From: Naegleria gruberi
Lineage: Eukaryota
Strand: one strand, 5' to 3'
Assembly (NCBI GenBank): GCA_000004985.1
Contig: GG738846.1
Length of the DNA: 64,000 nucleotides
The notes beneath the pieces are model-generated. The model had not been told where the DNA came from. It made no database searches and saw nothing but the letters and a program-made list of their open reading frames with translations. Shown here piece by piece: positions 6,022-60,600 of the stretch. Position numbers and translations under genes: made by a program. Every line of letters begins with the position of its first letter. Within the stretch, counting starts at the first letter, position 1.

Positions 6022-6495
6022 TGCTTTTTGTTGGGAACCACAAAGATGATGAATTTTGCTTTTTTGCTTTTTTGCTAAAGTGGTGTTTTTGAGATTCTTT
6101 TTTCAGATTTTAATTGTAAACTAGAGATTTTTAATTTATTTTGGATGACAATCTTAGTAGTAATGTAAAACAATGTTTAATTGAGGTAGATAATAAGATA
6201 ATAATATATTGAATATTAACAATTGGAGAGAAATGTTTGAAGATTAGCGGAATTGTGAAAATTGAAAATTGAAACTGAATCAAATTGGTAATTGCACATC
6301 TAGTACAAACAGTTGATATCAAGATTTAAAAAAATGACTGAACTTTATGAACATGTGAAGAGGGAATTGTTACAAATCAAACATTGGCCGATGATTCGCC
6401 ACTTTCTTCATGTAATTTAAAATTTGTTAACATTTCCAATACACAAGAATATTTCAAAGCACATTCATTGTTTATAAGTATTCGATCGGAATATA

Positions 6496-7439
6496 TGAGA
6501 AAGTTTCTGAAAAGATTCAGATTGGATGAAAAATTGAATGAAATTGTATTGGATGAGGATTTATTTCAATCAATTTGTGCATATATTGAAACTTTGTATA
6601 GTTTTGAAAAATGGAAAGAGTTGGAAGATGATTTCGAGCTGTTGGAGAGAGTGAAACAATTGGTGGGCGAAGATTTGATTCAAGAAACCATGAATCAATA
6701 CCAGTATGATCAGGATTGTGCCTCAATATTTGAAAGTGTTCAGAAACTCAATTCTATTACTAGCAAAAGACAGAGTTTTTTTACAAGACCTCCTGTAAAT
6801 GAGTCATTTGCTAAGAATTCGTGGGATCTTACCGTAATTGTACAAGATCCAACGAATGGAGAGGAGAAAACATTTTTTCTGCACAAGTTATTTATGAAAA
6901 GATGTCCATATTTCTCTACAGTACTCAGTTCTGGAATGATTGAAAGCCAAACCAATGAGTTGACTTTTAATTCGATATCTATTGCGGCTTTTGAGAAGGT
7001 GTTGGAATATTGCTATACTAATGCATTTATTCCAACTCTGGAAACTTGCATTGAAATTTATGTATTTTCTGGCTTTATTGAACTCTCTGCATTGAGAGAA
7101 TTGGCCTTCAAATATGTCAAAACAAAGATTGGAATTAGAGGAAATGAGCAATTGGCAACTGAATTATTAATGATACCAGATTTTAGAGATGATCCAAATG
7201 TGAAATTGGCATGCTTAAATGCAATTAAAAAAAATGTGAAAAAAATGGTCTTCCCTGAGAATGCATTATTGGTTTCCCTCAATTTACTTCCAACAGATTT
7301 CAAAGATCAAATTTTAATGCATAGATTGGGCTCTCTTTTAGCCGATCAATACGATCTTATTAAGGATAAATATCATGATATTCCTTTACAAGTTAGAGAG
7401 ACTATTCAACAACAAATGAAACTCAAGTTAAGAAAATAA
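6496..7439 (+). CDS. BTB/POZ domain protein
   Basis: BTB-like segment FFLHKLFMKRCPYFSTVLSSG...FEKVLEYCYTN...LSALRELAFKYV. The ORF-track start at 6384 is TTG; first in-frame ATG is at about 6496, and an upstream exon cannot be excluded. Confidence 0.45.
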
Positions 7440-7447
7440 AATATCAT

Positions 7448-15678: not shown

Positions 15679-15755
15679 ATTTTCATTGAATAAATTTAAG
15701 ACTTTTCTGAGTTCGGTTTATGATTTTCTTAATTAAACTAAAGAAATTTCAAAAT

Positions 15756-28730: not shown

Positions 28731-28884
28731 CAACTCCCATTATTTATCAATAGTTTATATAATATCTATACGAAACCATACTGAACATTTTACAAAGTGT
28801 TGCTGTATCAATATTGAGATACCTATTGGTGTTGCTGATTACAATTTTCCATTACAATCAAGGTTCACCAAAGTAACAAAAAAA

Positions 28885-35279: not shown

Positions 35280-35291
35280 TAAACCAAAATT

Positions 35292-40500: not shown

Positions 40501-43408
40501 GAAGATGATTGAAATTGATTCTTTAGTGTTACAAATTTCTCAATCTCTCTACAGAGCCTATGGTATATTTATTGAAAACCTTACTCCGCATGCTATCAAA
40601 CACTCAAGGCAAGAAATTAAACCTATTCAATACTCAACTGATAAGGTGCTCAGCACTGAAAAGATGAATATTATTAAGGCACTCATTGCCACATTGTACT
40701 ATGAACAATCAGTGAAGGGAGCTCTCAAGAAGGAACACAAGTCACTCAAAGAAATTGAATGCAGCTTGCAAATCAAAGATCAAGCCCTTTCACTCACAAA
40801 TAGTGATGAGATGCAGAAAGTTTTCTCAGAACTTTTCCATAAATTTGACGGAGGTGTTGTTGATTGTACAAAGATCAAGTTCCAATCCGATAAGAAGATT
40901 AATCTCGCCTATAACCTTCCTGTATCTGATTCATCATTTGTGTTGCCACTTACAGAAGCTCAAAAGAAGGACCCACTTTTCCCAATTAAATTGCTACAAC
41001 GTATGATCAAAGGTAGTTCACAAGAATCAAAAGAAAAGAAAAATCAAACACTTGATTATACACAGGTGAGACAAAGTTTGCTTTCAGTGAGGGATGATGA
41101 CCAAATTTTTGGTATTTTCAGAGGACTTCCAGGTGAATTGATCAAGTCCCATGGATTGAAATTCAAAGCAATGTCTTCAGCATTTGATAGAAAGATTTCA
41201 TTTATTCATCCACAATCAGATGCAATGAGAAAACAAAGAATAATCATTTCTAGAGATTCTGTTTCTCACCCTTGGGTTGATTTAACAATACCAGAAAAAA
41301 TTCTCGTCTCTGGAAGTGTATCAATCAAGGATATGACCATGTTACTTGATAAGAATACGACACTTCCTGACATTGAATTTTTTTATGAAATGTCCTTAGT
41401 ATTATTCTTGCCTTTGATTTATCCAAGAAGATTTTGCCTTTTCAAACCAAAGTATGGCGATCAAACATTTTGCCTCATATCAGAACTCTTTGAAAAGATG
41501 AAACCACATGAGAAGACTGAATACGTTCAAAATAAGATTAATCTTGATTTGAATGCTATCTATTTAATTTCTAGTGGTGTTAAAAACTTTGACTTGGTTT
41601 TACAAATTCTGAGAAGTTCCATCCAAAAGAAGATTACTGAATTACTAGCCAATCAACCAGTTGTTGATGTTGGTCTGTTATCCGTTCAAATAACTGATCT
41701 ACTCAATAATGCCAAGAATTACCTTTCTCACAAAGGTTACAATAGAAACATCGCCAAAATTATCTCCGTCTTACCTGCAGAAGATGAAGCTGTGGGAGGA
41801 GATGATGAATCATGTGGTGATCACATTCTTAGAACTAGTAGTTTCCAAAGAATTTCTCAAAGAATATTGAACCTATTGTCTAAACAGTGTCTTCTTTCTC
41901 CTGATGATCCACCTGTCGAAATCAAAAAGAAGGGTAAAACAACTATAGAAATAAGCTGTTCATATGATTATCAATACCTACAAGCCAAATATCTCTTGTT
42001 GCGAGAGATTAACAATGATTATGCTGTTTTTGCACATCCAAAACAAGCATTTGTATGCTTGGAAGTTGAGAAGAATAATTTGAAAGACTTTTTATCATCA
42101 ATGGTATACTTTTCAAGTTATGAGGATAAATCTGGAAAGAATAGAGAATTCTATACAATCAATAGAATTCCAGCAACCAAACGGTTAAATATTAGCATAG
42201 ATGAAGGTAAAGAAGGTAATAATGTAAGAAAATCATTCAATACCAAGATGAAATCTGACAAGCTTACTAATGGAGGATTTCTTCTTCAACCTTTTACACG
42301 CTCGATCTCAGCAGATGCTTTCAGAGAAAAAATTCCAGCCAATAGCAGCAATGATGAATACATGCAAGTGTATGCATACTTTGGGAAACAAGTTTTTTAT
42401 CAAGCAAAGGCAGGAGCAACAAAGATTCACTCTCAACAAAAGGGAGTAACATTTGAGTCACTTAGAAAGATGAAGATTGGTAACGATAATGATGTCAAAA
42501 CTCTATTCTTACACTTTATAGATGCAAGACGTCAGCCTGATTCTTCTCTAATTTCAAACTTCTTACTTTCCAAGAAAGCAGAAAATAAGGAAAGTGTATT
42601 CTCCAACAATCATTACTTTAAGAGAATTCTCGTTGATAAGAATCCAGTTTTGGGAAAGCAAAAGGAGTACATTTCACTCAATATTGTAGACATGGACAAG
42701 AAGGAGAGATTTACAATCTTGCTCTACCTCGACAGAGAACAGACCTACAAGGATGAAAATACTGACTTGGTTAAATGTTCTATGCAAAGCTGGAGAAGAT
42801 CTGATACCAAACTGATTTATTTAGATTTTGTCTCTCCAATACTTGTACAACCAAATGATAATGCTGAAACAATATCGAATAAGAATGAAAATACATTGGA
42901 CGTGAGATTTTCCAAAGTTACTCACTCTAGAACTATCAAGGAAGGGTTTAGAGATTTAATTCCAGCATCCATCCAAGAGTTGGAGTCAAGATTGTGGTAC
43001 AATGAGAGCGACTTTACACTTTATTATTGTTATGAGAAGGATGATTCTATATTATTTGCCAATCTGAATGATTTGAATTTGTCATTTGGCAGTACATTGG
43101 AAAATGATGAGTTGTGCAAATTGAGAGCTGAAACACCACTTGCACGTCTCTCAATCGATTCTATTCACTACGATATCAAGGAAAATTTGCACTTTAACGA
43201 TATTAAGATTCAATTTAAGAATAGAACCGACATTTCACATCCAACCCAAAGAAAATCTTTCACTACCCTTAGGGTTTGTAGCCATCAATTACAAGGAGCT
43301 TTAGGTAAAACTTTTGATAGGTCACAAGTGAAAGAATTCATGCAAATGATTCTCTCTTGGAAGGATTTGATGAATGAAAGTAGTTTGAAAACTCTAGAAG
43401 AAGAATAA
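37586..43408 (+). CDS. DEAH-box (DExH) RNA helicase with about 1000-aa C-terminal extension
   Basis: Motif I TGCGKSTQLPQ, motif II DEIHER, SAT, TNIAESSITVPDVVIVID, QRKGRAGR. Single 1940-aa ORF with ATG at 37586. N-terminal 340 aa are low complexity. Confidence 0.75.
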   Translation: MKKMFATGPTSSSTTRESSGQNNDNDTTRVSSTHIIVTPDTTFPTFQLSNTLHSTVPQQTIDKRTSYSALEERKRIRAKRKQFNNYQQQEGQSTEEPTYPPVNKSSSSSYYQNYNDTIQRPIQPPTRSVITEEEMNKDLATFKRQIKKEKREKQRVSKKKENNFNPLESNITIDNNSESNDKASSSVASTSSSNVTASNIYDRKQRNKKEKKPNDFRRVKNYFPPVPEGQQLNVQGPRLIESQPESLSATTNKPSTRIRENKRVNSQAIQNNSIESSVTLPVEKLPKAKTKKENQLLPQIGQIKLNNEQHTNTKPKAMDSLPIHEFSSSIINSIEENQVTVITGFTGCGKSTQLPQIVLKHYIENSNTHRLKKIKIVCTQPRRLAATSLARRVNNEMKSYLDKNGLNELFKGRISGHIIGGEAVLDHNTPIVYATEGCLTQIIMGMHSSSTSSYENFHNEFSHIVLDEIHERKVDTDLLLYFVREIVKVNPKIRIILMSATLSQEKICKYFESYLNMDISSAKNNGQNNGGNGEDDELFVSNIEKKVPAIHIPSGCYPVTENHIEDVITLLYNPVSNPLPEEELLSKQQFAPLLSKPLRASIKPERRILGARLIEYLHVRYPLNQSILVFLPGMMEIEDFADDLTANFIGGASAVDCPYDIHILHSLIAEQEQEESLLPPKEGKRKVILSTNIAESSITVPDVVIVIDFCLCKGKYWNENFNSEVMGLDWVSKDSSKQRKGRAGRVSPGILFRMITRDEYEMLDDSVVPEIQRKPLSSVVLQILMFNGAYVDDPTQFKGLPKNYKTPSEVLQKCLDPPNQSLLEQAYYQLESLGAIVNHQLGNSQTDSNSVVNQYELDEAYLVTSIGKFFSLIPTELNAAYLLLIGYSLNLLPECIIIVSILSRSVPILAFSSLKLLSARAIYSFDNGSESDLIAGFNAYNRFKQLQTLRRDHKITPSQFNSQLAKEMLALKKMIEIDSLVLQISQSLYRAYGIFIENLTPHAIKHSRQEIKPIQYSTDKVLSTEKMNIIKALIATLYYEQSVKGALKKEHKSLKEIECSLQIKDQALSLTNSDEMQKVFSELFHKFDGGVVDCTKIKFQSDKKINLAYNLPVSDSSFVLPLTEAQKKDPLFPIKLLQRMIKGSSQESKEKKNQTLDYTQVRQSLLSVRDDDQIFGIFRGLPGELIKSHGLKFKAMSSAFDRKISFIHPQSDAMRKQRIIISRDSVSHPWVDLTIPEKILVSGSVSIKDMTMLLDKNTTLPDIEFFYEMSLVLFLPLIYPRRFCLFKPKYGDQTFCLISELFEKMKPHEKTEYVQNKINLDLNAIYLISSGVKNFDLVLQILRSSIQKKITELLANQPVVDVGLLSVQITDLLNNAKNYLSHKGYNRNIAKIISVLPAEDEAVGGDDESCGDHILRTSSFQRISQRILNLLSKQCLLSPDDPPVEIKKKGKTTIEISCSYDYQYLQAKYLLLREINNDYAVFAHPKQAFVCLEVEKNNLKDFLSSMVYFSSYEDKSGKNREFYTINRIPATKRLNISIDEGKEGNNVRKSFNTKMKSDKLTNGGFLLQPFTRSISADAFREKIPANSSNDEYMQVYAYFGKQVFYQAKAGATKIHSQQKGVTFESLRKMKIGNDNDVKTLFLHFIDARRQPDSSLISNFLLSKKAENKESVFSNNHYFKRILVDKNPVLGKQKEYISLNIVDMDKKERFTILLYLDREQTYKDENTDLVKCSMQSWRRSDTKLIYLDFVSPILVQPNDNAETISNKNENTLDVRFSKVTHSRTIKEGFRDLIPASIQELESRLWYNESDFTLYYCYEKDDSILFANLNDLNLSFGSTLENDELCKLRAETPLARLSIDSIHYDIKENLHFNDIKIQFKNRTDISHPTQRKSFTTLRVCSHQLQGALGKTFDRSQVKEFMQMILSWKDLMNESSLKTLEEE

Positions 43409-45736: not shown

Positions 45737-48004
45737 ATGGCTACGAGTACGGGTAGATTCATTGCCGTCGTTTTAATGATGACCCTGATGATGGTTAGCA
45801 TTATGAATGGTTCGGAAATTCCTTCATCATACTTTAAAAATGTTCAAGGACCTCCAAGTGAATTTGCTAATTTTGCTGATCCAACACCAGCCGATGCTTC
45901 ATTGGTATCAGATTCTTTCATGATGGAAATTGCTCTCCAACAACAAGGAGACAAGGCTTCATGGCAAGGAATGATTCCAGTTGACTCTTTGGATCATGTT
46001 GCTATTTCTATTGTTGGTCCTGATGCTAAATACATGAATTTGAGAGTTGTTAATATTGATGATGTCGTTGTTAACGAATTACAAGAAGCTAACATTGAAA
46101 ATTATAATCAAGCTATTAAAGCTAAAAATCACGTTGTAAATACATGGATGGGTTATGATAAGCATAGCTCTGTTCCAGCTAAAGTTTTCAACTTTAATAA
46201 CAATGATCAAGTTAAGACTGGAGATTGGATTATTGAAGTTAGTTTGGATTCTCAAGCTCCACAAGCTGTTCAACAAAAGTATCAATCTAAGAAGGATACA
46301 TCAAAGGCTGACTTGATGTTGATCATTTATAATAGTAGCCCATTGACTGCTCATACTCAATCTATCAATATGAATGCTGTTCTTGGTGAAAAGATTGGTT
46401 TCATTACTCGTGTTACTGACAAGACTGAAGCTGAAAAGAGAGAAAGAATTGGTGTCAAGTATGTTCCAAAGGCTATTCCAGCCGAAAGTTTCGAACATAT
46501 TGAAGCTGAAATTGATGTTCAATATCCTGATGGAAAGGAAGACATTGTTCCAATGCACTCTACTTCTTTTGCTGGTATTCAAGCTTTGGAACACCAAGGT
46601 GCTTTCAGTGGTGAATTTGTTGCTACTGAAAAGGGTATTTTCCACTTTAGAGTTGTTGTTAAGGGTGTTGTTGGTGCAGAAATGAGAAAGACTCTCTTCA
46701 AATCTGCCAAGTTTATTGATCCACAATCACCAAAGATTACCTTTATGCGTACCACTCAACACATTATTGCTATTGTTGATAAGGAAGTTCAATTGGTCAA
46801 GGATGGTGCTCTCGCTTCCTTTACTCAAGCTGATGAAATGATGACTGTCAATTTGCAAGCTAAAAAGTTGTTGCCATCTGCTGAACCAAAGAAGTATAAG
46901 GCCTTTGCTGAAGTTTGGGCTGTTTCCAAGACTGATGCTTCCAAGCTTGTCCCAGTTTGTTACACTCTTGGTATGACTATTTCTTCTGATTCTCAAGAAC
47001 TCGGTAAGGATTATGTCAGTATTCCATTGCAATTCTCCATGAAGTGGTTGTCAAAGGCTAACGCTATGCTTCCATTGACATTGAAGAATATCAAGATTCA
47101 AGATGTTGACACCTCATCTGCTATTAGTGAATTGGATGAAGTCTCTTCAATTGAAACTCACAGTCTCTTGATTGATACTGAAACCAAGAAGGTTAATCAC
47201 AGACTCACTGAAAAGTCCATTGTTCACTCATATATTAACGATCTCTTGATGGATAAGTATGCTTTTGAACAAGTTACTGAAACCATGTTGATGGGTCCAA
47301 GACCAAAGCAACTCACTCTCAAGGCTAGGGCTAGAAATAGCAACCATAAGGTTATCCTTGTTCACGGTTATTGCTCTGCTGGTGATCCATTCACTGCCTC
47401 TCACTTCCAAAATGCCATTGTTTTCAGCGATCCAAACCAATCTAGAAGCAATGACAAGTTTGCTCAAATGATTTGGGAAGTTGCTAAGGATTTGGATTCA
47501 TTCGCTGTTGTTGCTCACAGTCAAGGTGGTATGGCAGGTGTTCACTTGTACACTTTCTATTGGTCAACTGCTGATAATATTCCAACCAATGCTAACATTA
47601 GACTTTTGCAATCTGTTGGTACTCCTTATGGTGGTTGTTCTGCTGCTGGTTCCATTGCTAACCTTGGTAAGGTCTTTGGTGCTGGATGTGGTTCAAATAC
47701 TGATTTGAGTCCTGATGGTGCTTCAAAGTGGCTCAAGACTATTCCAGAAGCCTCTCAAAAGAAGGTCTATTATTACACTACTCAAAATAAGAAGGATGGT
47801 TCCTCATGTCACTCCATGATGGACTGGATTTTGTACAAGCCAAACGATGGTACTTCTGAAATTAGATATACTTCTGCTTTGACTTCTGCTAACAATATGG
47901 GTTTGAAGTACGGATGGTGTCACACTACTGACATGAATTATCCACCTCAATGTACTGATCCAGATCGTAATGCTGAACTCAACAAGTATGCTAACGGTTT
48001 TTAA
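45737..48004 (+). CDS. Secreted alpha/beta-hydrolase; C-terminal class-2 lipase domain with large N-terminal domain (paralog of 1619..3454)
   Basis: Signal peptide MATSTGRFIAVVLMMTLMMVSIMNG. VILVHGYCSAGDPF and nucleophile elbow AHSQGG. Very strong preferred-codon bias (GCT, GGT, AAG, ACT, TCT, TTC). Confidence 0.65.
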   Translation: MATSTGRFIAVVLMMTLMMVSIMNGSEIPSSYFKNVQGPPSEFANFADPTPADASLVSDSFMMEIALQQQGDKASWQGMIPVDSLDHVAISIVGPDAKYMNLRVVNIDDVVVNELQEANIENYNQAIKAKNHVVNTWMGYDKHSSVPAKVFNFNNNDQVKTGDWIIEVSLDSQAPQAVQQKYQSKKDTSKADLMLIIYNSSPLTAHTQSINMNAVLGEKIGFITRVTDKTEAEKRERIGVKYVPKAIPAESFEHIEAEIDVQYPDGKEDIVPMHSTSFAGIQALEHQGAFSGEFVATEKGIFHFRVVVKGVVGAEMRKTLFKSAKFIDPQSPKITFMRTTQHIIAIVDKEVQLVKDGALASFTQADEMMTVNLQAKKLLPSAEPKKYKAFAEVWAVSKTDASKLVPVCYTLGMTISSDSQELGKDYVSIPLQFSMKWLSKANAMLPLTLKNIKIQDVDTSSAISELDEVSSIETHSLLIDTETKKVNHRLTEKSIVHSYINDLLMDKYAFEQVTETMLMGPRPKQLTLKARARNSNHKVILVHGYCSAGDPFTASHFQNAIVFSDPNQSRSNDKFAQMIWEVAKDLDSFAVVAHSQGGMAGVHLYTFYWSTADNIPTNANIRLLQSVGTPYGGCSAAGSIANLGKVFGAGCGSNTDLSPDGASKWLKTIPEASQKKVYYYTTQNKKDGSSCHSMMDWILYKPNDGTSEIRYTSALTSANNMGLKYGWCHTTDMNYPPQCTDPDRNAELNKYANGF

Positions 48005-48141: not shown

Positions 48142-48765
48142 ATGAGTTTACGACCAGAATTCACCAGACAAGACAGCCTCTCATCTTCCGTAAGCTATGA
48201 AGATGTTGATGACGAGCCTTCCCCATTTTCATCTTCCGAAGTTGATCAACAACAATTTGTGCTTGATAATAATTCATTGTTAGAGGCTAGATTTTCTATT
48301 GAACATGTAAAAACTGTCCTATCGCAACTCTACAAACAATTAACATGTTTTAATATTTTCATCATGATTTTAGTGTACATAGTAATCGTATCTGCAAGTT
48401 CCATATTTTTCTTTTTTGTTGCGTCCACAGATGTGAATTATGATGATAATGTTTACAATAGTATGAACACATTCGAATATCTGCACTATTCATTTACAGC
48501 CTCAAGAAGAATTCTGCACTGGAAGAGACTATTGATCGTGATTGCATTCCAATTATTTGTATTTATTAGTCATTTATCATTCTTCCTCACCTTCTTCCAA
48601 TATTGCAAAAACAAATACGTGCAAGGACCTCTAATCAGAATGGAACATTTGAAAACAATTTACAAGCAAAAATTGTTCATTGCTGTTTCCTTAATAACTC
48701 TCACGAGTATGATTAGTCTCTTCTTACTATCTCCTAATATTGTTAATTGGCTGTTTGGACTCTAA
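48142..48765 (+). CDS. Small multi-pass membrane protein, unknown function
   Basis: ATG at 48142. Three to four hydrophobic segments. Confidence 0.35.
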   Translation: MSLRPEFTRQDSLSSSVSYEDVDDEPSPFSSSEVDQQQFVLDNNSLLEARFSIEHVKTVLSQLYKQLTCFNIFIMILVYIVIVSASSIFFFFVASTDVNYDDNVYNSMNTFEYLHYSFTASRRILHWKRLLIVIAFQLFVFISHLSFFLTFFQYCKNKYVQGPLIRMEHLKTIYKQKLFIAVSLITLTSMISLFLLSPNIVNWLFGL

Positions 48766-50123
48766 TTTTCAGTTCCTTGCAATGGTTGTGAATAAAACTT
48801 ATTATCCAAATCAGTTTCATGTTTTTTCAAGTTGATAAATTGATCATTCTCAATTACATTCTTGTAATAGTGATTGACAAAGGTGAGGAGATTGTTAAGA
48901 ATTTCTAAAAACTTGTCATTGGACATGTAAATCAAGTGTAATAATTTAGGTGAGGCAATCTTTTCAAATATAAATATACAAAATAGTAAAATATTGAGAT
49001 AAATACTCGTGATGGTCCAAAATAACTGATTCACAAATGATTTTGGTATTTGCATGAGATTTTTCATTCTCAAATAAACTGAAAGAATCATGTAGAAATT
49101 CTTTGGATTATTATTTCTAATCTTGGCTAGTAATCTGGCAACAGTGAGCTTTGCATTGGTTCCAATTCTGAAATACTTCCTAAAATTTAACATTAAATCC
49201 GAAAGATGATTCTCCAATTTGGACAATTCAATTACAATAATCGGTTTGATAAAAAAATTGAATCGATCATGTACATAGGTTACAGTTAATAGAGTTAAAA
49301 TTGCTAATGATTTGATAATGTTCAATAAAATTTCCACAAACAGAATAATCATACTAGAAGTAATTGGTCTATCAATAGTTGTATAATATTCTGGTTTGAT
49401 TTTTTCATTTTCAGAACTCTTCTCATTAAAATCAATCCCATCACTATTACTGCTCGCATTAAATAATTTAAATAGCATCTTATCAATACTATATACTGTA
49501 TTATTAGTATTACTACTAGCATTATTATTTACATTAAAATTCTGTTTTGATGATGGATCATCCTCTTCCTCAATTGGTAGATCAAATCCAACACTTGATG
49601 ATTTCTTCTCCTTTTCCTTTTTTGAATTTTCTTTATCTAATAACTTCATATTGTGATGATCATCTTCATCAACCATTTCCAAAACATTGTAAACACTCTT
49701 TATAAAATTGGTCAATTTGTTCACTGATTGAAATGGATGTAATAATATCTGTGAATCATATTCATTATAATATTTAGCCTTTATCCTTTCATTACTATTA
49801 ATATTGTGAGAAAATAAATTATGAAGAATTGGAGCATTGGTTGAAATTTTGAACAAGTGATGATCTAATAAATCAATCTTATTTTCCTTTAACTTGTTGA
49901 GAATTTTCGTTCGTAATTCCTGATTTTTAATGGGTTTCAAGTGTGAGAGGAGTTGAACAAGTCTTCTCCTTTTCGAATAATCGGATGGTGGTGTTGTTGA
50001 TGATGGTATTTTGTATGTTGATGATGGTGTCGATGATGAATCCGAGTGTTGTGAATGTTCATTATTATGATGTTGTTTATCAAATGAGTGAGGATGAATT
50101 GTTAAGAGATCAAATAGGAACAT
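48762..50123 (-). CDS. Hypothetical protein (453 aa), His/Ser-rich N-terminus and hydrophobic C-terminal half
   Basis: ATG at 50123..50121. Its stop codon overlaps the stop of the converging 48142..48765 gene. Confidence 0.4.
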   Translation of the reverse strand: MFLFDLLTIHPHSFDKQHHNNEHSQHSDSSSTPSSTYKIPSSTTPPSDYSKRRRLVQLLSHLKPIKNQELRTKILNKLKENKIDLLDHHLFKISTNAPILHNLFSHNINSNERIKAKYYNEYDSQILLHPFQSVNKLTNFIKSVYNVLEMVDEDDHHNMKLLDKENSKKEKEKKSSSVGFDLPIEEEDDPSSKQNFNVNNNASSNTNNTVYSIDKMLFKLFNASSNSDGIDFNEKSSENEKIKPEYYTTIDRPITSSMIILFVEILLNIIKSLAILTLLTVTYVHDRFNFFIKPIIVIELSKLENHLSDLMLNFRKYFRIGTNAKLTVARLLAKIRNNNPKNFYMILSVYLRMKNLMQIPKSFVNQLFWTITSIYLNILLFCIFIFEKIASPKLLHLIYMSNDKFLEILNNLLTFVNHYYKNVIENDQFINLKKHETDLDNKFYSQPLQGTEN

Positions 50124-51325: not shown

Positions 51326-52615
51326 ATGTCAATACTCGAAGAACAAAACACACTCCCATTCTCTGAACAAGAATCACCAGAAAATTATCTTTATTTTCTT
51401 ACCACAGTTAATCCAACAGATTTTATTAATACGTCGGAGAGAGGAAGTAAAATTGTAAAATTATTTTCGGAACACTTTTTACCTTTGCCCTTCTCATCGA
51501 ATGAGGATGGATCTGACTTGACAGAGGAAACAACAGTAATTTTACTTGTTCCATACTTTATTGCATTGGGAACTTTGCAAATTAGACAGGAAAATACTCA
51601 GCCATTCAATATGGAATTGCATCAAAAAAATAGAAAGATTCAATTGAAACAAGCAAATGAATATTTTTGTAAATTTTTAAATTTGGCTTTACAATATGAT
51701 CAGGTTAATGATGATTACCTCTCTTGGGTATTGCCTCATACAATGAATAGGGATGATGATGAGGAGGAACAAGTTGCAAAATCTACCAAGAAACAGGATA
51801 AGGCATTCGAACAATTGATGAATGACAGAAGTCAAATGGTATTGCGAATGAAGACAAAGAATGCCTTAGCACAGGAGTTATTTTCAAACGTTGAGGAAAT
51901 GTCTGAATTGGAAATTTCTAGATTATTGTCGAGTGTTTCTCTTGGAGAGGATTCAAGCAAGAAGGTTTCAGAACAAGTGAAAAAGAAAATGTTGAACATT
52001 AGAGATTATATTAACTTTTGCGTTCTAGACACTTTGGAGAATTTAGCTTCCAACAGTAGAGAAGAAGGAATGCTCAATGCAGTTTCTGCTCGTCCTTCCA
52101 TGCCTCAACATCCTTCCCAATCGTATCAACAACAAAGTGGTTCAACATCAGGACAACCAATTTCCCATCTTAAGGCTACATCTATTAATGATGTTCTTAA
52201 TAACCGTGGGGTTCTCTCACAAATGGGCTATAATATGATCTTACTTCCAAATAATAATGGTGGCAATACTGGAAACAAGTCAACCAGTAGTGGCAATTCA
52301 TTACAAAAGAAGGCACTCGCCAATCAGTCCATTCAATCCAATATTATCAATAATAGAACAACAAGAGAGGATATCAAAAGTAGAGTGTTTGGATCCTATG
52401 TTCCTGGACCAACAGTATCTCTGGAAGAGTTTGCCCGACAGGAATGTATCGACATGCACCAAAGAGAAGAAAAAGACAAGCAATTCAAACAAGAACAGAC
52501 TCAAAAGAAGAAGGATGACGAAGAGGAAGAAGATGAAGAGGAATTGAAAAAGAAGAGAGTGTGGGAAGATTGGAAAGATGATCATGTTAAAGGTTCTGGT
52601 AATATGAGAGATTAA
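51326..52615 (+). CDS. TAP42/alpha4 (IGBP1)-like PP2A-family phosphatase regulatory protein
   Basis: C-terminal signature VFGSYVPGPTVSLEEFARQE...EEEEDEEELKKKRVWEDWKDDHVKGSGNMRD matches the TAP42-family C-terminus (R-E-W-D-D-W-K-D-x-H-P-R-G-x-G-N). ATG at 51326. Confidence 0.7.
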   Translation: MSILEEQNTLPFSEQESPENYLYFLTTVNPTDFINTSERGSKIVKLFSEHFLPLPFSSNEDGSDLTEETTVILLVPYFIALGTLQIRQENTQPFNMELHQKNRKIQLKQANEYFCKFLNLALQYDQVNDDYLSWVLPHTMNRDDDEEEQVAKSTKKQDKAFEQLMNDRSQMVLRMKTKNALAQELFSNVEEMSELEISRLLSSVSLGEDSSKKVSEQVKKKMLNIRDYINFCVLDTLENLASNSREEGMLNAVSARPSMPQHPSQSYQQQSGSTSGQPISHLKATSINDVLNNRGVLSQMGYNMILLPNNNGGNTGNKSTSSGNSLQKKALANQSIQSNIINNRTTREDIKSRVFGSYVPGPTVSLEEFARQECIDMHQREEKDKQFKQEQTQKKKDDEEEEDEEELKKKRVWEDWKDDHVKGSGNMRD

Positions 52616-53430
52616 AATACATCATAATAATTTTCACTCTTGACCACAATCAATGAAGGTTTGAGACATGTTCTCACAAATTCTACAACTTGTTTCACAG
52701 CTTCCACCATTCTATTTCCATTAATATCAATAAACACTTTCAATTCACATGATGGGTTACCATATTTATATCGTCTCCAAACTTTGGAAATGCTTTTTTG
52801 TTCCATTTCATCCAAACAATTGGACCACCAAAATTCAATCTCTGGATATTTCTTTTTAGTTTCCTCAATATAATCCTTTGAAATATCCAAACACAATAAT
52901 TTTGCACAATTTTCAAATAATATTTTAGAGGTATCACCACGAGCAGAACCAATCTCAATCACAAAGTCTCCCGATTGCATTATTGGATCAACACCTCCTT
53001 TCTGTTGCTGTACAAAATCATACGATTTGAAAACTTGTGTTTTTGCAAGCATTCGGAAATCTCTTGTATCTCTACAAACAATCACCTTTTCTTGATGCAA
53101 TAAACTCATGATGGGAATCATCTTGCTTGGAGAGACATGATAACAAGACTGATCTTTACAATATTGAATTTTATATTTTCCAACAAATTCACTCCTCTCA
53201 CTTTCTACCACCTTGTTTACAACTCTGGCAATGGAGTATACTTTTTTCCCTTGAATTATCCATACTAGATTATATTTTGAAAATAGATATTCCTCATTGG
53301 AAGTAATTAATTGGTGATCAAAATTATTATATTCCACTTTTCCGAGATTATATAAAATTAATCCATCTTTTACTCCTTTCATTCCATCGTCATTGTTATT
53401 TTGATGAGTAATGGAAGTTTGTTCCACCAT
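52612..53430 (-). CDS. Class I SAM-dependent methyltransferase-like protein
   Basis: Motif I-like VIEIGSARGDTS followed by LLCLDIS. ATG at 53430..53428. Its stop overlaps the TAP42 stop in a shared TTAA. Confidence 0.4.
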   Translation of the reverse strand: MVEQTSITHQNNNDDGMKGVKDGLILYNLGKVEYNNFDHQLITSNEEYLFSKYNLVWIIQGKKVYSIARVVNKVVESERSEFVGKYKIQYCKDQSCYHVSPSKMIPIMSLLHQEKVIVCRDTRDFRMLAKTQVFKSYDFVQQQKGGVDPIMQSGDFVIEIGSARGDTSKILFENCAKLLCLDISKDYIEETKKKYPEIEFWWSNCLDEMEQKSISKVWRRYKYGNPSCELKVFIDINGNRMVEAVKQVVEFVRTCLKPSLIVVKSENYYDVF

Positions 53431-54822: not shown

Positions 54823-57561
54823 ATGGGAATCAATAAGGTTACACCAATAGAGAATTTTCCAACTCCCTCCTATAACAACCACACGTTGGATCCCAACGCT
54901 TGCGAATTGCAGGAAATATCATCAAATGGATCTTTTAATTATTTACAATCATCAATAGGGAAATTGAGTGCTAGAAGTTTTGATGTGAGGGCCGTTACCA
55001 AAACTTCCTTCTCCAACACTATTCATGTCTCAAGCAAACGGATGGGGAGACCAGATACACCTCCCCCGAACGACCTCAAAAGTATAATTCCCTGGTTCAG
55101 ATATAATTGCTTAACACTGGCTAACTTGGTGATTGTGTTTGTGCTCATATTTATATTATTGTTCTGTATTGCTTTTGCCTTGACCATTGTGCTCTTCACA
55201 GGTCATATTTCATCAGAATTGAGTTCGGTAACAATTGGTGTCATAAAATCCAAGGTGGATCTCTTTCTGAAGGAACGATTAGGTGTCGTAGAGACTGTTG
55301 CCTTTACTGCTCAACAAGATGTACGAATGCTTATCAATCAGTTTGCTTATTCCCCATCACCATTCTCCTCTTCTGCTCTCTCTTCCCATATCAGAGAATA
55401 CCTCTCCTCACGCTTAATTTACCACAACATTACCTCGATAGGGTTATATTTTGAAAATTGCTTGGGCAATGCAAACACTTCTTCCATGTACAAATGCCAA
55501 CTTGATCAATCAACAGATTTTGTAAATAGCTATATTTGGATGAATCAAACAATGAATTCAGATTTGAACACTTACCAAACAAGTGAACATCGAAATACAT
55601 CCATCACCATTGATACCTCCCAACCTCTTCAAACCATAGTCTCGAGTTCCACTAAAATTCCATTAAACTTTGAAGATTCAACTCTCCTCCACTCTGATTC
55701 CGCCTACCGTACCTTTTCCAATGCATTCTATTTAGATATGAAAGACAAACTTGTCAACCTGCCAGCCTATCAAGCTCTACAAGGTGTATGGTCACCATCC
55801 TCTAAAATAGATCCATCCAAATTTAATCTAGTCTTTACTGTGCCTATTTTTGATGCCAATAATTTGCAACTCTATGGAATAACCCAGGTGGAATATCCCT
55901 TACAAGCTTTGGCTCATTTAATGAGGACATTTACTTATCAATCAAAGGGTTACATTGTTCTTTCAGATTTGAACACTGAAAAAGTGGTTATTAGTTCTCT
56001 TCCAGATTCTTACACTCTTAAATCGATCTATGATATTAAGGAACTGAACATTGGTAAACTAATGACGTATCTCAAACAGAATTCCTTCCTCGATTTCAAT
56101 TCTGAAATCTCAGTCAGCGGAGTTGAATTTGAGGGGCTGGTCTACAATATGCTCAATACAAAATTCTCCTACAATAACGTTAACTTAGGGATGACCATTG
56201 TATTGGTCGATGATTCGGTTCAAGAATTCCACAATGATACCCTGTACTTGGCTATTTGTATTTCAGTTGGTTATGTAGTAATTGGACTTGTAATGGCTAT
56301 TATTTTAGGGTTCTTAATTTCGAAACCTCTCAAAGCATTGAGTGTTGAGTTTGGTCACATTAAGCACATGGACCTTGAGAAGGTTAGACAACACTTTTCA
56401 ATGTTTGGTGAATTCCAAGTTCTCTTCCAAAAGTTGGATGAAATGGTTGTTTGGTTGAATGATGTTCGTTCTTTCATTCCTAACAGTATCTTGATGGAAA
56501 TTAGAGGTGATTCAATTGACAATGATGTTACAGAGACTGAAATTGTTACGACAAACATCAATGTAAAAGACAAATTAGCAGAGACCAAAGGAAGAGCAAG
56601 TAGTGAAATTCCAGAAAACTCAATCGCTAACATTGCAAAGGGGTTCAAGACCTATCAAGAATACTCAGTTTTGTATATGCGTATCATGGACTTGGAATCA
56701 TTAACAGTTACCGAGAGAGCATTCTACTTTGAAAAGGTTCTTGAAATTTCATCAAAGATTGCAAAGAAAAACAATGGTGATATCCAATTATTGGATATTA
56801 GCAGAATACGTATTTACTATTGTGATCCAAATAATGAAAATGCCTCCAAAAAGGTGATTACAATGGCTTTGAAAATTTTGAGTGTTGTTGCTGATTTTAG
56901 CTCAACAATGGAGCAACAAGGAAAGTTGCCGTGCAACTTGATAATTTCAATCTCTACGCAGAAGGCTCTCGTTGGTAATATTGGTACTAGGGAGCATAGA
57001 ATCCACACCATTGTTAGTAGATCCATTTCATTGTGTGAACAAATGATGCTCATCGCCAAATCATTGAATATTTCACTTATTGTAGATTCTAACTCTTGTG
57101 CTGCAAACTTGGGAAACTATGTTTATAGGCCAGTTGACAGAATTTCAGTGGAAGACGATTTGATGGTTATTTATGAAATCTTTAGAGAAAATCAAGTAAA
57201 TGACCAAGAATGGATGTACGAACTGGATCAAAAGGAAAAGAATAGTAGCTACAATGAATATCAAAGTGCATTCCAAACCTTATTGAAGGGAGGACCCAAA
57301 ATTGAAGAGTACCGTGAAGCCATCTTGAAAGTTAGACGATTCAAAGGATCTAATGGTTTTGATCGAGATCTTACTGCTGACCATCTAATCTTTATGCTGG
57401 AAAGAGTTTCTGAAAGTTGTGAGAGAGGCCTTTCTGAAAAGTTGAGCCCACAATTCACTTCATCCTATCAATATTGTTCCAGAATATATACAGAATGGGA
57501 AAATAAGTTTGGTATGGATGTGCTGAAAATTAGACCAGTTGAAATTGTCAATAATAAATAA
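54823..57561 (+). CDS. Receptor-type class III nucleotidyl cyclase-like protein (ACG-like topology: TM - extracellular domain - TM - cyclase homology domain)
   Basis: ATG at 54823. TM1 at about aa 95-130 and TM2 at about aa 480-505 flank a roughly 350-aa Asn-glycosylation-rich domain. The cyclase-homology domain runs from about aa 610 (YSVLYMRIMDLESLT ... NNGDIQLL ... VGNIGTREHRIHTIVSRS). Two metal-binding Asp and the Arg appear conserved, but the transition-state Asn appears replaced. Confidence 0.55.
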   Translation: MGINKVTPIENFPTPSYNNHTLDPNACELQEISSNGSFNYLQSSIGKLSARSFDVRAVTKTSFSNTIHVSSKRMGRPDTPPPNDLKSIIPWFRYNCLTLANLVIVFVLIFILLFCIAFALTIVLFTGHISSELSSVTIGVIKSKVDLFLKERLGVVETVAFTAQQDVRMLINQFAYSPSPFSSSALSSHIREYLSSRLIYHNITSIGLYFENCLGNANTSSMYKCQLDQSTDFVNSYIWMNQTMNSDLNTYQTSEHRNTSITIDTSQPLQTIVSSSTKIPLNFEDSTLLHSDSAYRTFSNAFYLDMKDKLVNLPAYQALQGVWSPSSKIDPSKFNLVFTVPIFDANNLQLYGITQVEYPLQALAHLMRTFTYQSKGYIVLSDLNTEKVVISSLPDSYTLKSIYDIKELNIGKLMTYLKQNSFLDFNSEISVSGVEFEGLVYNMLNTKFSYNNVNLGMTIVLVDDSVQEFHNDTLYLAICISVGYVVIGLVMAIILGFLISKPLKALSVEFGHIKHMDLEKVRQHFSMFGEFQVLFQKLDEMVVWLNDVRSFIPNSILMEIRGDSIDNDVTETEIVTTNINVKDKLAETKGRASSEIPENSIANIAKGFKTYQEYSVLYMRIMDLESLTVTERAFYFEKVLEISSKIAKKNNGDIQLLDISRIRIYYCDPNNENASKKVITMALKILSVVADFSSTMEQQGKLPCNLIISISTQKALVGNIGTREHRIHTIVSRSISLCEQMMLIAKSLNISLIVDSNSCAANLGNYVYRPVDRISVEDDLMVIYEIFRENQVNDQEWMYELDQKEKNSSYNEYQSAFQTLLKGGPKIEEYREAILKVRRFKGSNGFDRDLTADHLIFMLERVSESCERGLSEKLSPQFTSSYQYCSRIYTEWENKFGMDVLKIRPVEIVNNK

Positions 57562-57605
57562 TCTACTTCAAGTTTAGATTAATTTTGTTAATACTTTGAC
57601 TTATT

Positions 57606-60600
57606 TTATTGGAAAGCAACTTCAACCTTATCCTCATTTACAATTCTCTTTCTTTGATAAAAGAGCATGTAAGCATTTGAAGTTTTCAATTCCTTCTCTG
57701 TAAGTGGCGAAACAGACGAATCGTTGAAACAATACCATCTACTATCTTCACAATTTTTAGCATATGAATAATAGTGACCACCATAGAGACCTCCTGTATG
57801 ACAACTGATAGCAAATAAATCATAGAGCATGTGGTCTTCTGGCTTTCTAACCATATAATCACTCAAGTCAAGATTATAGATTGGATAATCAACAAGTGCA
57901 TTCACTTTCTCCCTACCAAATCTATTAAAACCAAATCTCTTGAGATGGATAATTAAAATTTCAGGGCTAGACCAAACACAACACTGTTTGAATGCACAAA
58001 CATGTTTCTTACAATCAGGGCAATACCATTGGTCTCTTTCTCCGAGTTGTTCCATTTCACTATTCAATTTCAAACAATCGTCCAGACTAATGTTTTGAGA
58101 TCGAGGGGCCTCGTTAGTAATATTTTGTTCTGCAACATGAACGGTTACTGTTTCTTTAGTTTTCAACATTTTAACATCAAACCAATCAACAGAGAAATAA
58201 TAATTATCCTCCTGTTGTAAGTATTCCTTAACCATATCATCTCTATCATCATAAAGAATTGGAATGCCACATGTATCATTTACAACCTCAACAGACTTGT
58301 CAATAACTGTAAATTTAAATGGAATATTGGCTGGATCAAAGGCAGGGAAAAGTGTCTGACGTAAAATTTCAATTCTTTCAGCAAGAGGATATTCTTGTCC
58401 ATCCTCTTTGGTCGGTTGTAAATTAGTTTCAGGGTCTTCTGGTGATTTCTTGGCTACTCTTTGTAAATGAGACCAAAGAATATCATAAAAGTCCTTTGTG
58501 GAAATTTCCTTCTTTACGAATAATACAAATGGAATACCCACACTCTTGAATTTTCCCTCTTCGGAAGGGTATCTCTGTCTTATTGGAATAATTAAATACT
58601 TCTCAGGAGAGTAATCATCTGGAACATCAGCACATAATACTTTTGGAGTTGATTTGGCGTTAGGATCAATAATCTTAACACTATCATTAAAAGAGAATTG
58701 TCTTCCAATAGAAAATCCAGCCATGGCAAAGAATTGGAGTTTTTGTGGGTCTCTTCCACTAACTTTAGCAAATTGAGTGGCAAGTACTTGAACAGTTGAT
58801 TGCTTTGGTAACTCGACAGTATATTTAGTTGCTCTTCCTCCATTTTCTGTATTCAATAAAATTACATCCAATCGGTGAGGCATTGATTTACCAACAGGAA
58901 CTGAAAGATACTATATAAGTGTAAATAATTATTCAATTTAAAAAAATCCTTACCATAAATGGGTCAAACTTGACTGAAATCTTGTTACAAACTTTGAATA
59001 CATATTAGCAATAAAATACAAATAACAAACTTACCATTACAAATAAGAGTAGACTTGAGTTGTCCTTGAAATAAATCTACAATTACACTATCATTTCTCT
59101 TCAAATGTTGTTCCCAAGATTCTTTTGCAATCACTTCATCAGGTCGTCCGTCATAATCCTTTGCTTCAATATATGGTTTGTTGATTACCTTGTTTAAATC
59201 TTCATGTAAACCATCCAATAAATATGATGTCAATTCTTGAGAGTCGTGTTGATTATAGCCAGAGAATTGAGGGGCAAATTGACTGATGGCATACTTAAAG
59301 TTGGTTGGAGTAAAGTTGGCACCACCACTCCACATTTCTTTAATGAGAGAGGCAAAGTTATTAGCAAGTTTACCCTTAGTTCCCAATGGATTGCTTGTAT
59401 TGATATGCTTTGCATAGAGTCCACTTATAAAGTAATTTTTAAGAGGTACAGTGTTAGAGAGACATTGAATAGCACTGTTCATAAAGCACGTATTACCCAA
59501 ATTTCTCAATCCACACAAACCTCTCTTTTTACTCTTACCTGAGGCAGGAGTTGCAATACCAAATGTACTAAATGAATAATCCTTGATACTATCCCAAATT
59601 TCACTTAATTTACTTCTCTTTTCTTCGTCATCTTCATCTTCCTCTTCATCACTAGCATCGTTTGATTCTTGCTTTTTTTTGAAAATTTCAAGTGGAAATT
59701 CTCCACCATTTTGTTTAAACTCAAAAACGATACTTTGTCCATCAAAAATTAGAGCTTTTTCAAGAGTTTGACTCTCACTGTCAGCAATGGCACTGGCGCT
59801 TGAATCTTCCTTTCGCCACATTCTGCAGTTTTTCAAAGTTGATGTTTTCTGAATTATTGTACTTTCAAAAAGAACACAACCAAGCATTTTCAAATCCTTG
59901 GTAGCCAATTTTTTGCTTACTTGAATTGTTGTCTTGGTATCTTTCATGATTGTTCCCTTTTCATTGACCATATAAATATTGAGAATATATGGATGAATTT
60001 CTACACGTCTCATTTGATTATTTTCCAAGCCATCCACAATAACTCTTCTGACGATTTTTTGACTATTATTAATTTCTCCATACCAATGGGCTAATAAATC
60101 ATAACTCTGTATAATTATTAGTAGTAATTATTATTATAATTAGTTTGACAATAGTATTATAATAAAACTAACCTCCTCGGAAACAAACTCAAAATCTTGT
60201 CTTGTAATATCTCTTTTAAGAACTGTTGTGAATAGAACAGAACCATCTCTTGTAAAATTGGTAAATTCTGGTACTAATGGATGTTTTAAACTAAAACCAT
60301 TATAAATGAGAACTTCTTGAATAATGTCACTATTGTCAATTGGACCAGGAGCAGGAGATTTTTTATGTGATGTTTCCTTGTGTTTCTTCTTTCCAACATT
60401 TTCATTTGGATAATTTACATATTCTTTCCAAATCTTGAACCATGATGAAGAAATAATTACAAATGTGCTTCCTGCTTTAAAAGGTGACTTGTTTTCAATT
60501 GATTCTATTTTTTCCCTTTGTTTTTTAGCATCGGGTTTTGTGTAACTCGTCTTTTTACTCTTACTCTTGGCAGTAATGATCAGAGAAATGCTTCCTTTTT

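Follow-up and report, generated by a model that had tools for sequence, protein, structure and literature searches.

Shared stop codons and tightly packed convergent genes in a 64 kb nuclear region of Naegleria gruberi

The analyzed window is a 64 kb stretch of nuclear DNA of Naegleria gruberi, as identified by matches to annotated N. gruberi proteins. In the first-pass annotation, two convergent gene pairs were described as sharing their stop codons, in TTAA at 52612-52615 and in CTAA at 48762-48765, and three further pairs as separated by gaps of 8 nt (7440-7447), 12 nt (35280-35291) and 77 nt (15679-15755). All of these coordinates were verified in the sequence, and two more tight convergent junctions were found, of 44 bp (57561/57606) and 73 bp (1545/1619). 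Coding regions, stops included, share 4 nt at each of the two -4 pairs and none at the pairs with 8, 12 and 77 bp. A -4 overlap is the sole geometry which lets two convergent stop codons have bases in common. By direct reasoning from the codon table, it needs YTAR on the plus strand, and offsets of -1, -2, -3 or -5 cannot yield stops on both strands.

The TTAA junction joins a TAP42/alpha4-family gene and a methyltransferase-like gene:

51326..52615, plus strand: TAP42/alpha4-family gene, 429 aa (GenBank EFC49923, NAEGRDRAFT_61888)
52611..52616, plus strand: ATTAAA on the TAP42 stop (GAT TAA A), a predicted dual-use poly(A) signal
52612..52615, both strands: shared stops TTAA, with TAA on each strand and 2 nt in common, as read from the sequence
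52612..53430, minus strand: methyltransferase-like gene, 272 aa, TAA read from 52614 to 52612

TAP42 is a conserved regulator of the PP2A/TOR pathway. The protein encoded here has a 100% identical counterpart among the annotated N. gruberi proteins and matches the TAP42 family of Pfam (PF04177) with 119.8 bits (cutoff 26) and E = 1.9e-34, over profile positions 51-345 of 346. Its reading frame ends in GAT TAA, with the stop codon at 52613-52615, and the C-terminus ...KGSGNMRD* is common to all four orthologues at the same position. The sequence GAT TAA A at the TAP42 stop was also found in N. lovaniensis (L001) and in the species represented by contig L004, which makes three species together with N. 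gruberi. This 1449-bp Logan contig was also considered as a possible transcript, but it includes the upstream gene's end, lacks a poly(A) tail and was rejected as uninformative.

For the methyltransferase-like protein, an AF2 model (pLDDT 77.6) predicts an N-terminal PWWP/Tudor-like barrel followed by a short Rossmann domain. The modelled structure includes an alpha/beta domain with 5 strands. Top Foldseek matches were KsgA/Erm and PWWP domains (for KsgA/Erm, E about 1e-3 and TM about 0.3). The Pfam family Methyltransf_25 reached 17.3 bits, under its cutoff of 27; an EIGSARG motif was found, and the canonical strands 6-7 are missing family-wide. Orthologues were identified in N. lovaniensis (E = 2e-70) and N. 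fowleri (E = 2e-68), and the alignment is conserved through ...LIVVKSxxYY, to 4 residues from the N. gruberi end. No part of the conserved core is missing, and the tail of the N. gruberi protein falls 5-16 residues short of those in the aligned orthologues. Since it is shorter than in all of them, the TTAA junction is regarded as derived. There was no N. gruberi entry among the homologue matches and the exact sequence was absent from the collection; the N. gruberi reference protein set apparently lacks the gene. Exact-protein look-ups with the N. gruberi TAP42 and methyltransferase-like reading frames for a transcript or independent DNA returned nothing on record. The ORF-free stretch at 53431-54822 (1392 bp) had no Rfam match at E <= 0.1, and ARAGORN detected no tRNA genes in the whole window.

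The CTAA junction is composed of the following features:

48142..48765, plus strand: gene for a predicted membrane protein of 207 aa, TAA at 48763-48765
48762..48765, both strands: shared stops CTAA, with TAA on the plus and TAG on the minus strand
48762..50123, minus strand: gene for a protein of 453 aa (EFC50123, NAEGRDRAFT_45440), an exact annotated match, TAG read from 48764 to 48762
48791..48796, plus strand: AATAAA, predicted to serve the 207-aa gene as poly(A) signal

The 453-aa protein ends in ...PLQGTEN*, identical to the end of its 586-aa orthologue in N. lovaniensis; an orthologue match of E = 2e-81 was obtained for it. The 207-aa protein ends in ...FGL* and its N. lovaniensis orthologue (E = 8e-40), at equal length, in ...FGV*. 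Its sole 100% match came from an ENA metagenome. By accession order, there is no GenBank slot for this gene between EFC49922 and EFC49923, and the N. gruberi reference annotation seems to lack it. A chance reading frame of 207 codons is very unlikely at 33% G+C (about 1e-7 per start). The CTAA junction is found, with identical bases, in the independent ENA metagenome contig L007 (99.6% identity over 1311 bp), which also contains the AATAAA at 48791-48796. This hexamer is the antisense of Phe-Tyr codons in the 453-aa gene; the N. lovaniensis orthologue has Phe-Gln at this site, without TTTATT.

Both shared-stop pairs therefore join genuine protein-coding genes, based on the Pfam match for TAP42 and on orthologues for the other three. 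The annotated stops are the true protein ends at both junctions, as the C-termini match those of the orthologues at or near the end. Accordingly, the objection considered at the outset, namely that a stop is wrong or that a gene terminates in another exon, fails for these two pairs.

The remaining tight junctions with assigned features are:

6495..7439, plus strand: BTB-domain gene (Pfam BTB, E = 2.3e-14), stop inside AATAAA (7435-7440)
7448..9703, minus strand: COG3 gene (Pfam COG3_N, E = 2e-31; COG3_C, E = 6e-82), 8 bp from the BTB stop
14041..15678, plus strand: ABC-F ATPase gene (EFC49913), AATAAA at 15689-15694, alignments reaching residue 539 of 545
15756..18290, minus strand: oxidosqualene cyclase gene, aligned up to residue 835 of 844, with a dual-use AATAAA at 15755-15760
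33708..35279, plus strand: gene without assigned function (ORF of 523-567 aa), stop followed by TAAA, giving AATAAA at 35278-35283
35292..37400, minus strand: Aladin-like WD40 gene (EFC50122, an exact annotated match), 12 bp from its partner
54823..57561, plus strand: cyclase gene, AATAAA at 57553..57558 directly ahead of the stop
57606..58883, minus strand: last exon of a ubiquitin-protease gene, dual-use AATAAA at 57605..57610, 44 bp junction

The Aladin-like protein matches Pfam Beta-prop_Aladin with E = 5e-46 and 157.8 bits, under the gathering cutoff of 171.1 bits, and the stop of its gene falls within AGTAAA (35291-35296). The comparison of stops with homologues covered the four shared-stop genes and the ABC-F and oxidosqualene cyclase genes. 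For the COG3 C-terminus, no relative was found in the PDB, and two scans of metagenome contigs, one based on COG3 and one with a 24-nt junction pattern, were also without match.

In addition, we compared the spacers of the different gene orientations. The nine convergent spacers measure -4, -4, 8, 12, 44, 73, 77, 453 and 514 bp (median 44 bp), whereas the median is 345 bp for tandem (n = 14) and 497 bp for divergent spacers (n = 8). Convergent spacers are shorter than tandem (p = 0.004) and divergent ones (p = 0.003, both Mann-Whitney), and the tight tail-to-tail packing exceeds chance. Tightness was found at 7 of the 9 convergent junctions, whatever the identity of the genes.

Direct RNA sequencing of N. 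gruberi identified AAUAAA as the top poly(A) signal, dual-use stop codons and a median 3' UTR of 39 nt (PMC11529991). There, AAUAAA is described to overlap 11-13% of the stops, with a median 3' UTR of 22 nt for such genes, the signal lies 15-20 nt upstream of where cleavage occurs, and AWUAAA is the reported signal class. In the window, stops are overlapped by AAUAAA or AUUAAA at 7435-7440, 15755-15760, 35278-35283, 52611-52616 and 57605-57610, a rate that exceeds chance and agrees with the published share. Many genes in tight pairs carry AATAAA or ATTAAA on the stop or just ahead of it. Of 29 genes, 5 have AATAAA at -2 of a TAA stop, where the expected share is 4.9% (p = 0.013). At -9 to +1 of the stop it was found in 6 of the 14 genes in convergent pairs of <=77 bp vs 2 of 20 others (Fisher p = 0.035). 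This link between stop-proximal signals and tail-to-tail spacing is marginal and known from this window only. The data come from a single 64 kb window holding 9 convergent pairs, and the hexamer enrichment tests are marginal (p about 0.03).

The distribution of the hexamer within coding sequences is asymmetric between the strands. On the sense strand, AATAAA occurs 3 times in 49.8 kb of coding sequence, against 46.8 +/- 6.5 expected from codon shuffling, and two of the three occurrences are located 6 and 9 nt ahead of a stop (the copy at 57553..57558 is one of the three). On the antisense strand, 64 copies were observed vs 53.4 expected. Loci from relatives show 0 sense copies vs 16.4 expected and 48 antisense copies vs 27.8 expected. 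The four tightest pairs each have a partner that lacks AWTAAA near its stop; the first AWTAAA past the stop lies at +132 for COG3, +197 for the 453-aa gene, +997 for the Aladin-like gene and +1052 for the methyltransferase-like gene.

It had also been proposed that the 3' UTRs of these pairs overlap on opposite strands, implying natural antisense overlap or unusual termination. From the spacers of -4, 8 and 12 bp together with the published UTR lengths, each mRNA is predicted to end within the coding sequence of the partner, and the mRNA 3' ends of these pairs very probably overlap by tens of nucleotides. For the signal-less partners (COG3, 453-aa, Aladin-like and methyltransferase-like genes), this picture of short overlaps is unproven. 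The proposal does not hold for the 77 bp pair: with AATAAA at 15689-15694 on the plus and at 15755-15760 on the minus strand, the spacer can accommodate both predicted 3' UTRs without overlap. Unusual termination is not needed, since canonical AAUAAA or AUUAAA lies on or beside many of these stops.

The identity of the partners is not conserved and differs in N. lovaniensis and two metagenome relatives. In N. lovaniensis, TAP42 faces an unrelated 537-aa gene across a 28 bp spacer, and the methyltransferase orthologue faces a 319-aa gene across 38 bp. A metagenome relative has its methyltransferase orthologue in a 25-nt overlap with a Rad10-like gene. For the CTAA pair, the two orthologues are 1850 bp apart in N. 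lovaniensis, and in the interval a 321-aa gene lies between a 5S rRNA gene and a degenerate 5S copy. Tight convergence is general, the pairings are not conserved. The direct repeats of 135-143 nt that flank this 1.85 kb segment were considered as LTR-like ends of a mobile element, but were identified as 5S rRNA genes by Rfam, one intact and one degenerate; the protein encoded between them has no Pfam match. The 5S identity of the repeats has no bearing on whether the segment moves.

We consider the junctions to be most likely (probability about 0.75) the ordinary result of genome compaction in N. gruberi combined with very short 3' UTRs, presumably with no regulatory role. Tail-to-tail spacers are without promoter, so that deletions can shrink them, and they would do so until two stop codons collide. 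The 4-nt YTAR overlap would be the last state which keeps both proteins intact. Cleavage and polyadenylation would be canonical, with AAUAAA or AUUAAA on the stop or a few nt away and cleavage expected about 15-20 nt further on. With a stop-proximal signal and cleavage so near, the 3' UTR and the downstream elements would lie antisense to the final codons of the partner. For the pairs with spacers of -4, 8 and 12 bp, the mature mRNAs would be complementary over roughly 30-100 nt, and RNA polymerase II would terminate inside the partner gene. There is no sign that the shared stops are a special regulatory device; they are expected from compaction together with very short mRNA tails.

The absence of signals at some stops leads to a somewhat unlikely alternative, in which the methyltransferase-like, 453-aa and COG3 genes are read far into their partners in antisense, up to the first AAUAAA. 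The antisense 3' UTR is then predicted to reach ~220 nt in the 453-aa gene and, in the methyltransferase-like gene, ~1.07 kb, over most of TAP42. This fits the lack of AWTAAA within 130-1050 nt downstream of these stops, and since antisense AATAAA is undepleted in coding sequences (64 vs 53; relatives 48 vs 28), antisense read-through would eventually meet a signal. However, the published median 3' UTR is only 39 nt, and variant hexamers, UGUA or U-rich elements near the stops could suffice: UGUA is located 7 nt ahead of the methyltransferase-like stop, TTTAAA on the COG3 stop and AGTAAA on the Aladin-like stop. Going further, the tail-to-tail junctions might act as asymmetric bidirectional terminators which couple the expression of the two genes, a speculation we regard as distinctly unlikely. 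One partner would then carry a strong AWUAAA on its stop and the other no canonical signal for 130 to 1050 nt, and the latter would end via the antisense U-rich signal region of the partner, via polymerase collision or as a long antisense RNA, which for the methyltransferase-like gene would cover about 1.07 kb of TAP42. The strand asymmetry of AATAAA in coding sequences would then represent a genome-wide fail-safe that stops antisense read-through. In the last 60 nt of the coding sequence, A+T is 0.669 in the tightest pairs vs 0.664 in other genes; it is not raised, and the composition bears no mark of a shared terminator.

Functional tail-to-tail natural antisense modules, in which one partner regulates the other via mRNA duplexes, RNAi or transcriptional interference, seem very unlikely. 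Such modules would fit the overlap, which is geometrically unavoidable at -4, 8 and 12 bp given the UTR lengths, the finding that mRNA duplexes in yeast are specific to short-spacer convergent genes (PMC6993858), and the derived state of the TTAA junction with its shortened methyltransferase-like tail. However, the partner is different in every species examined, which argues against a selected antisense relationship. Moreover, the paired genes have unrelated functions, and such tightness is shared by 7 of the 9 convergent junctions, whatever genes they join. The least probable explanation, to which we give almost no weight, is an artefact: in each pair, one open reading frame would be spurious or would have its genuine stop in a different exon, or the assembly would be wrong at the junction. 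N. gruberi genes can have introns, and the 207-aa and methyltransferase-like reading frames have no entry in the reference protein set. On the other hand, both have clear N. lovaniensis orthologues with matching C-termini, the length of the 207-codon frame is hard to explain by chance, contig L007 independently reproduces the CTAA junction, and missing annotation of this kind would be produced by a gene caller that bars overlapping models.

Dual-use stop/poly(A) signals with ultrashort 3' UTRs are described for Giardia, Spironucleus and N. gruberi in PMC11529991, and the same overlap is seen in the window. In searches of the main text of that article, 'convergent' appeared in another sense only, and the terms 'antisense', 'neighboring' and 'opposite strand' gave no match. 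Literature searches on Naegleria turned up no article that deals with convergent or overlapping 3' ends. Williams et al. are said to have described, in PNAS in 2005, overlapping transcription in the compacted genomes of microsporidia and nucleomorphs. As in these genomes, the spacers observed here are too short for UTRs, so that transcripts are expected to run into their neighbours. Naegleria is free-living and has a genome of about 41 Mb. Unlike microsporidia and nucleomorphs, it keeps AAUAAA at many stops, the loss of recognisable 3'-end signals that goes with transcripts across several genes in that type of genome is not seen, and the tail-to-tail spacers of the window alone collapse, with promoter-bearing spacers of about 350-500 bp.

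In yeast, the overlap of convergent genes reportedly lies within the 3' UTRs, between the coding sequences. A short spacer implies complementary 3' ends here as it does for convergent yeast genes (PMC6993858; bioRxiv 10.1101/2022.11.02.514956), and, as in yeast bidirectional termination zones, an A-rich signal on one strand is a U-rich element on the other. In contrast to yeast, spacers in the window go down to -4 bp, so that signals fall inside the coding sequence of the partner, and mRNA duplexes in Naegleria are hypothetical. Bacterial 4-nt convergent stop-stop overlaps have the identical YTAR geometry with 2 nt common to the stops. In N. gruberi, however, a eukaryote whose mRNAs are monocistronic and polyadenylated, 3'-end formation is constrained differently from that in bacteria.

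The window provides a clean example of a free-living eukaryote which compresses its terminator-side spacers and yet keeps the canonical AAUAAA system. The route of compression is the placement of the signal on the stop codon, with the hexamer almost wholly excluded from sense coding sequence. For annotation, gene callers which bar overlapping models probably under-count genes in N. gruberi and similar genomes. Tagging and knockout experiments are affected as well, as one gene's final codons and the signals for its 3' end fall within its partner; if TAP42 were tagged at its C-terminus, the stop and tail of its neighbour would be destroyed.

In the window, all convergent junction coordinates of the first-pass annotation are right, as re-reading of the sequence revealed. 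TAP42 and the methyltransferase-like gene share TTAA, and their stops have two bases in common (GAT TAA at 52610-52615 vs TTT TAA from 52617 to 52612). CTAA is common to the 207-aa gene (TAA) and the 453-aa gene (TAG). The convergent gaps of 8, 12 and 77 bp are likewise present, and two additional tight junctions of 44 bp (57561/57606) and 73 bp (1545/1619) were identified.

51326..52615 (+) TAP42 and 52612..53430 (-) methyltransferase-like gene, shared TTAA
48142..48765 (+) 207-aa gene and 48762..50123 (-) 453-aa gene, shared CTAA
6495..7439 (+) BTB gene and 7448..9703 (-) COG3, 8 bp
33708..35279 (+) gene and 35292..37400 (-) Aladin-like gene, 12 bp
14041..15678 (+) ABC-F ATPase gene and 15756..18290 (-) oxidosqualene cyclase gene, 77 bp

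An assembly error at the CTAA junction is ruled out, since the same junction occurs in an independent ENA metagenome contig (L007, 99.6% identity over 1311 bp).

The nine convergent spacers (-4, -4, 8, 12, 44, 73, 77, 453 and 514 bp; median 44 bp) are shorter than the 14 tandem spacers (median 345 bp; Mann-Whitney p = 0.004) and the 8 divergent spacers (median 497 bp; p = 0.003). The collapse is therefore limited to spacers without a promoter. By codon-table reasoning, YTAR, with a 4-nt ORF overlap, is the only arrangement that lets two convergent stops have bases in common; offsets of -1, -2, -3 and -5 are impossible, which would make -4 a wall where shrinking convergent spacers pile up. Two of the nine pairs lie on it. 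The 34 genes of the window use 29 TAA, 3 TGA and 2 TAG stops. Both TAG stops (15676-15678 and 48762-48764) belong to tight convergent pairs, the latter being imposed by the final codon of the partner, CTC. ORF-based gene ends were left out of the statistics at three places, where neighbouring same-strand ORFs in different frames look like separate exons of one gene with short introns between them:

27999-28730 and 28702-29817 (+), ORFs overlapping by 29 nt
4520-5677 and 5716-6021 (-), adjacent ORFs
22803-23234 and 23388-24350 (+), adjacent ORFs

The TAP42 ORF is 100% identical to a predicted Naegleria gruberi protein from a 1.0-Mb scaffold, and eight further ORFs have exact matches among the GenBank N. 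gruberi proteins. The G+C content is 31-36%, and about 81% of the 64 kb is covered by ORFs of at least 150 codons. The longest non-coding stretch (53431-54822, 1392 bp), which separates the methyltransferase-like gene from the divergent cyclase gene, contains no ORF of more than 66 codons and has no Rfam match at E ≤ 0.1; ARAGORN detected no tRNA genes in the whole window. ORF 18734-19198 (-) falls into a 90%-identity cluster with the N. gruberi "differentiation-specific protein 35-2" (163 aa), whose annotated model is not equal to the plain ORF.

Wrongly placed stops do not account for the two shared-stop pairs, because the protein ends match those of orthologues or, for the methyltransferase-like protein, the conserved region is complete. 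TAP42 (PF04177, 119.8 bits vs a cutoff of 26) ends in ...KGSGN[ML]RD* at an equal position in N. lovaniensis, N. fowleri and a metagenome relative. The end of the 453-aa protein (...PLQGTEN*) is exactly that of its N. lovaniensis orthologue, and the 207-aa protein ends in ...FGL* vs ...FGV* at equal length. The methyltransferase-like ORF (272 aa, -) has orthologues in N. lovaniensis (E = 2e-70), N. fowleri (E = 2e-68) and a JGI metagenome (E = 1e-77). Conservation runs through ...PSLIVVKSxxYY; beyond this the N. gruberi protein has 3 more residues, and the orthologues are 5-16 residues longer at the C-terminus. Its AlphaFold model (pLDDT 77.6) predicts an N-terminal beta-barrel resembling PWWP/Tudor domains (residues ~39-120) and a short five-stranded Rossmann-like domain, whose last helix forms the C-terminus. 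This predicted architecture is common to the Naegleria and metagenome orthologues. No Pfam family scores above threshold and the best Foldseek matches, KsgA/Erm methyltransferases, reach only E ~1e-3, so that the name "methyltransferase-like" is fair but not proven. In the 77 bp pair, both proteins align to solved structures up to 6-9 residues from their C-termini.

A direct RNA sequencing study (PMC11529991) describes AAUAAA as the top N. gruberi poly(A) signal, ~15-20 nt upstream of cleavage sites, with enrichment of UGUA on its upstream side and of U-rich sequence on its downstream side. 3' UTRs have a median of 39 nt overall and of 22 nt for the 11-13% of stops that overlap AAUAAA (dual-use stops; PMC11529991). 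The window agrees well with these features. Of the 29 genes with a TAA stop, 5 have AATAAA at position -2 of that stop vs 4.9% expected (p = 0.013). The 49.8 kb of coding sequence, taken from every ORF of ≥150 codons, holds 3 sense-strand copies of AATAAA vs 46.8 ± 6.5 after codon shuffling (minimum 27 in 300 shuffles), and antisense copies are not depleted (64 vs 53.4 expected). The loci of relatives contain 0 sense copies vs 16.4 expected and 48 antisense copies vs 27.8. Two of the three sense copies precede a stop by 6 and 9 nt, each in a tight convergent pair, and the only internal one falls on codon 145 of gene 37586..43408 (1940 aa). Stop-proximal AATAAA (-9 to +1) was found in 6 of 14 genes from convergent pairs of ≤77 bp vs 2 of 20 others, a marginal difference in a small sample (Fisher p = 0.035). 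The hexamer scan located the following signals in the four tightest pairs:

7435-7440 (+) AATAAA on the stop of the BTB gene
35278-35283 (+) AATAAA within TAATAAA at the end of gene 33708..35279
52611-52616 (+) ATTAAA containing the TAP42 stop
48791-48796 (+) AATAAA of the 207-aa gene, antisense to Phe-Tyr codons of its partner

GAT TAA A at the TAP42 stop is also present in N. lovaniensis and a third species. From these positions and the published signal-to-cleavage spacing, the four mRNAs would end 14-50 nt inside the coding sequence of the partner. The first-pass annotation had held that 3' ends must overlap in all these pairs: they very probably do so at the predicted ends of the -4, 8 and 12 bp pairs, but overlap is not required for the 77 bp pair, where both predicted ends lie within the spacer. 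Its suggestion of unusual termination is not needed, as one partner of each tightest pair carries an AAUAAA/AUUAAA-type signal on or near its stop. The second partner, in the same scan, has no AATAAA or ATTAAA (AWTAAA) near its stop:

COG3 (-) first AWTAAA at +132 past the stop
453-aa gene (-) first AWTAAA at +197
Aladin-like gene (-) first AWTAAA at +997; stop within AGTAAA
methyltransferase-like gene (-) first AWTAAA at +1052, nearly the full TAP42 length in antisense

These partners may use variant signals close to the stop: the COG3 stop carries TTTAAA, and the methyltransferase-like stop is preceded by UGUA at a distance of 7 nt. Or they may instead make long antisense 3' UTRs.

Comparison across Naegleria favours genome compaction over a selected antisense module as the origin of the pairings, since the partners differ between species and tightness is general. 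In N. lovaniensis, the convergent partner of TAP42 is an unrelated 537-aa gene (28 bp spacer) and that of the methyltransferase orthologue a 319-aa gene (38 bp); in another relative a tandem gene follows TAP42, and a metagenome relative has a 25-nt overlap between the methyltransferase orthologue and a Rad10-like gene. Judged from these loci, tight or overlapping convergence is genus-wide with interchangeable partners. Synteny of the CTAA pair is conserved in N. lovaniensis (207-aa, 453-aa and 305-aa orthologues), where the 1850 bp between the stops contain a 321-aa gene along with one 5S rRNA gene and one degenerate 5S copy. As both C-termini have equal length in the two species, two ancestral stops appear to have been brought together exactly in N. 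gruberi. Compaction would make the pairs a further example of the tail-to-tail overlap with dual-use stop/poly(A) signals known from compact genomes. Rfam placed the 5S rRNA copies at two N. lovaniensis loci, L008 and L005, which are orthologous to the N. gruberi genes that collided stop to stop:

L008 5646-5764 and 7220-7329 (-) 5S rRNA copies, one degenerate
L005 7058-7176 (+) 5S rRNA gene

These dispersed genes adjoin paralogous ~320-aa genes without a Pfam domain (L008 6238-7203, L005 6044-7003); the N. gruberi window holds neither a homologue of this protein nor a 5S gene. Two N. lovaniensis contigs of one assembly, L001 (PYSW02000036.1) and L002 (PYSW02000088.1), show the same TAP42 locus, gene order and alignment to the window TAP42 protein, and probably represent a haplotig or an assembly duplicate.

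By-products of the analysis are the very strong bias of coding-sequence AATAAA against the sense strand and two probably unannotated genes. GenBank N. gruberi accessions are numbered in positional order, strand by strand:

45737..48004 (+) 755-aa gene, EFC49922
51326..52615 (+) TAP42, EFC49923
48762..50123 (-) 453-aa gene, EFC50123
57606 onward (-) ubiquitin protease gene, EFC50125

EFC49922 is directly followed by EFC49923, hence no accession slot exists for the 207-aa ORF, and between EFC50123 and EFC50125 one accession is available for two ORFs (305-aa and methyltransferase-like genes). No N. gruberi protein was among the homology-search matches of the methyltransferase-like ORF, the 207-aa protein recurs as an exact copy only in a metagenome gene call, and neither ORF (48142-48765, +; 52612-53430, -) has an entry in the N. 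gruberi GenBank/UniProt protein set. We infer that one partner of each shared-stop pair is probably absent from the reference annotation, as an unannotated gene overlapping an annotated one. A gene caller barring overlapping models would yield such missing partners.
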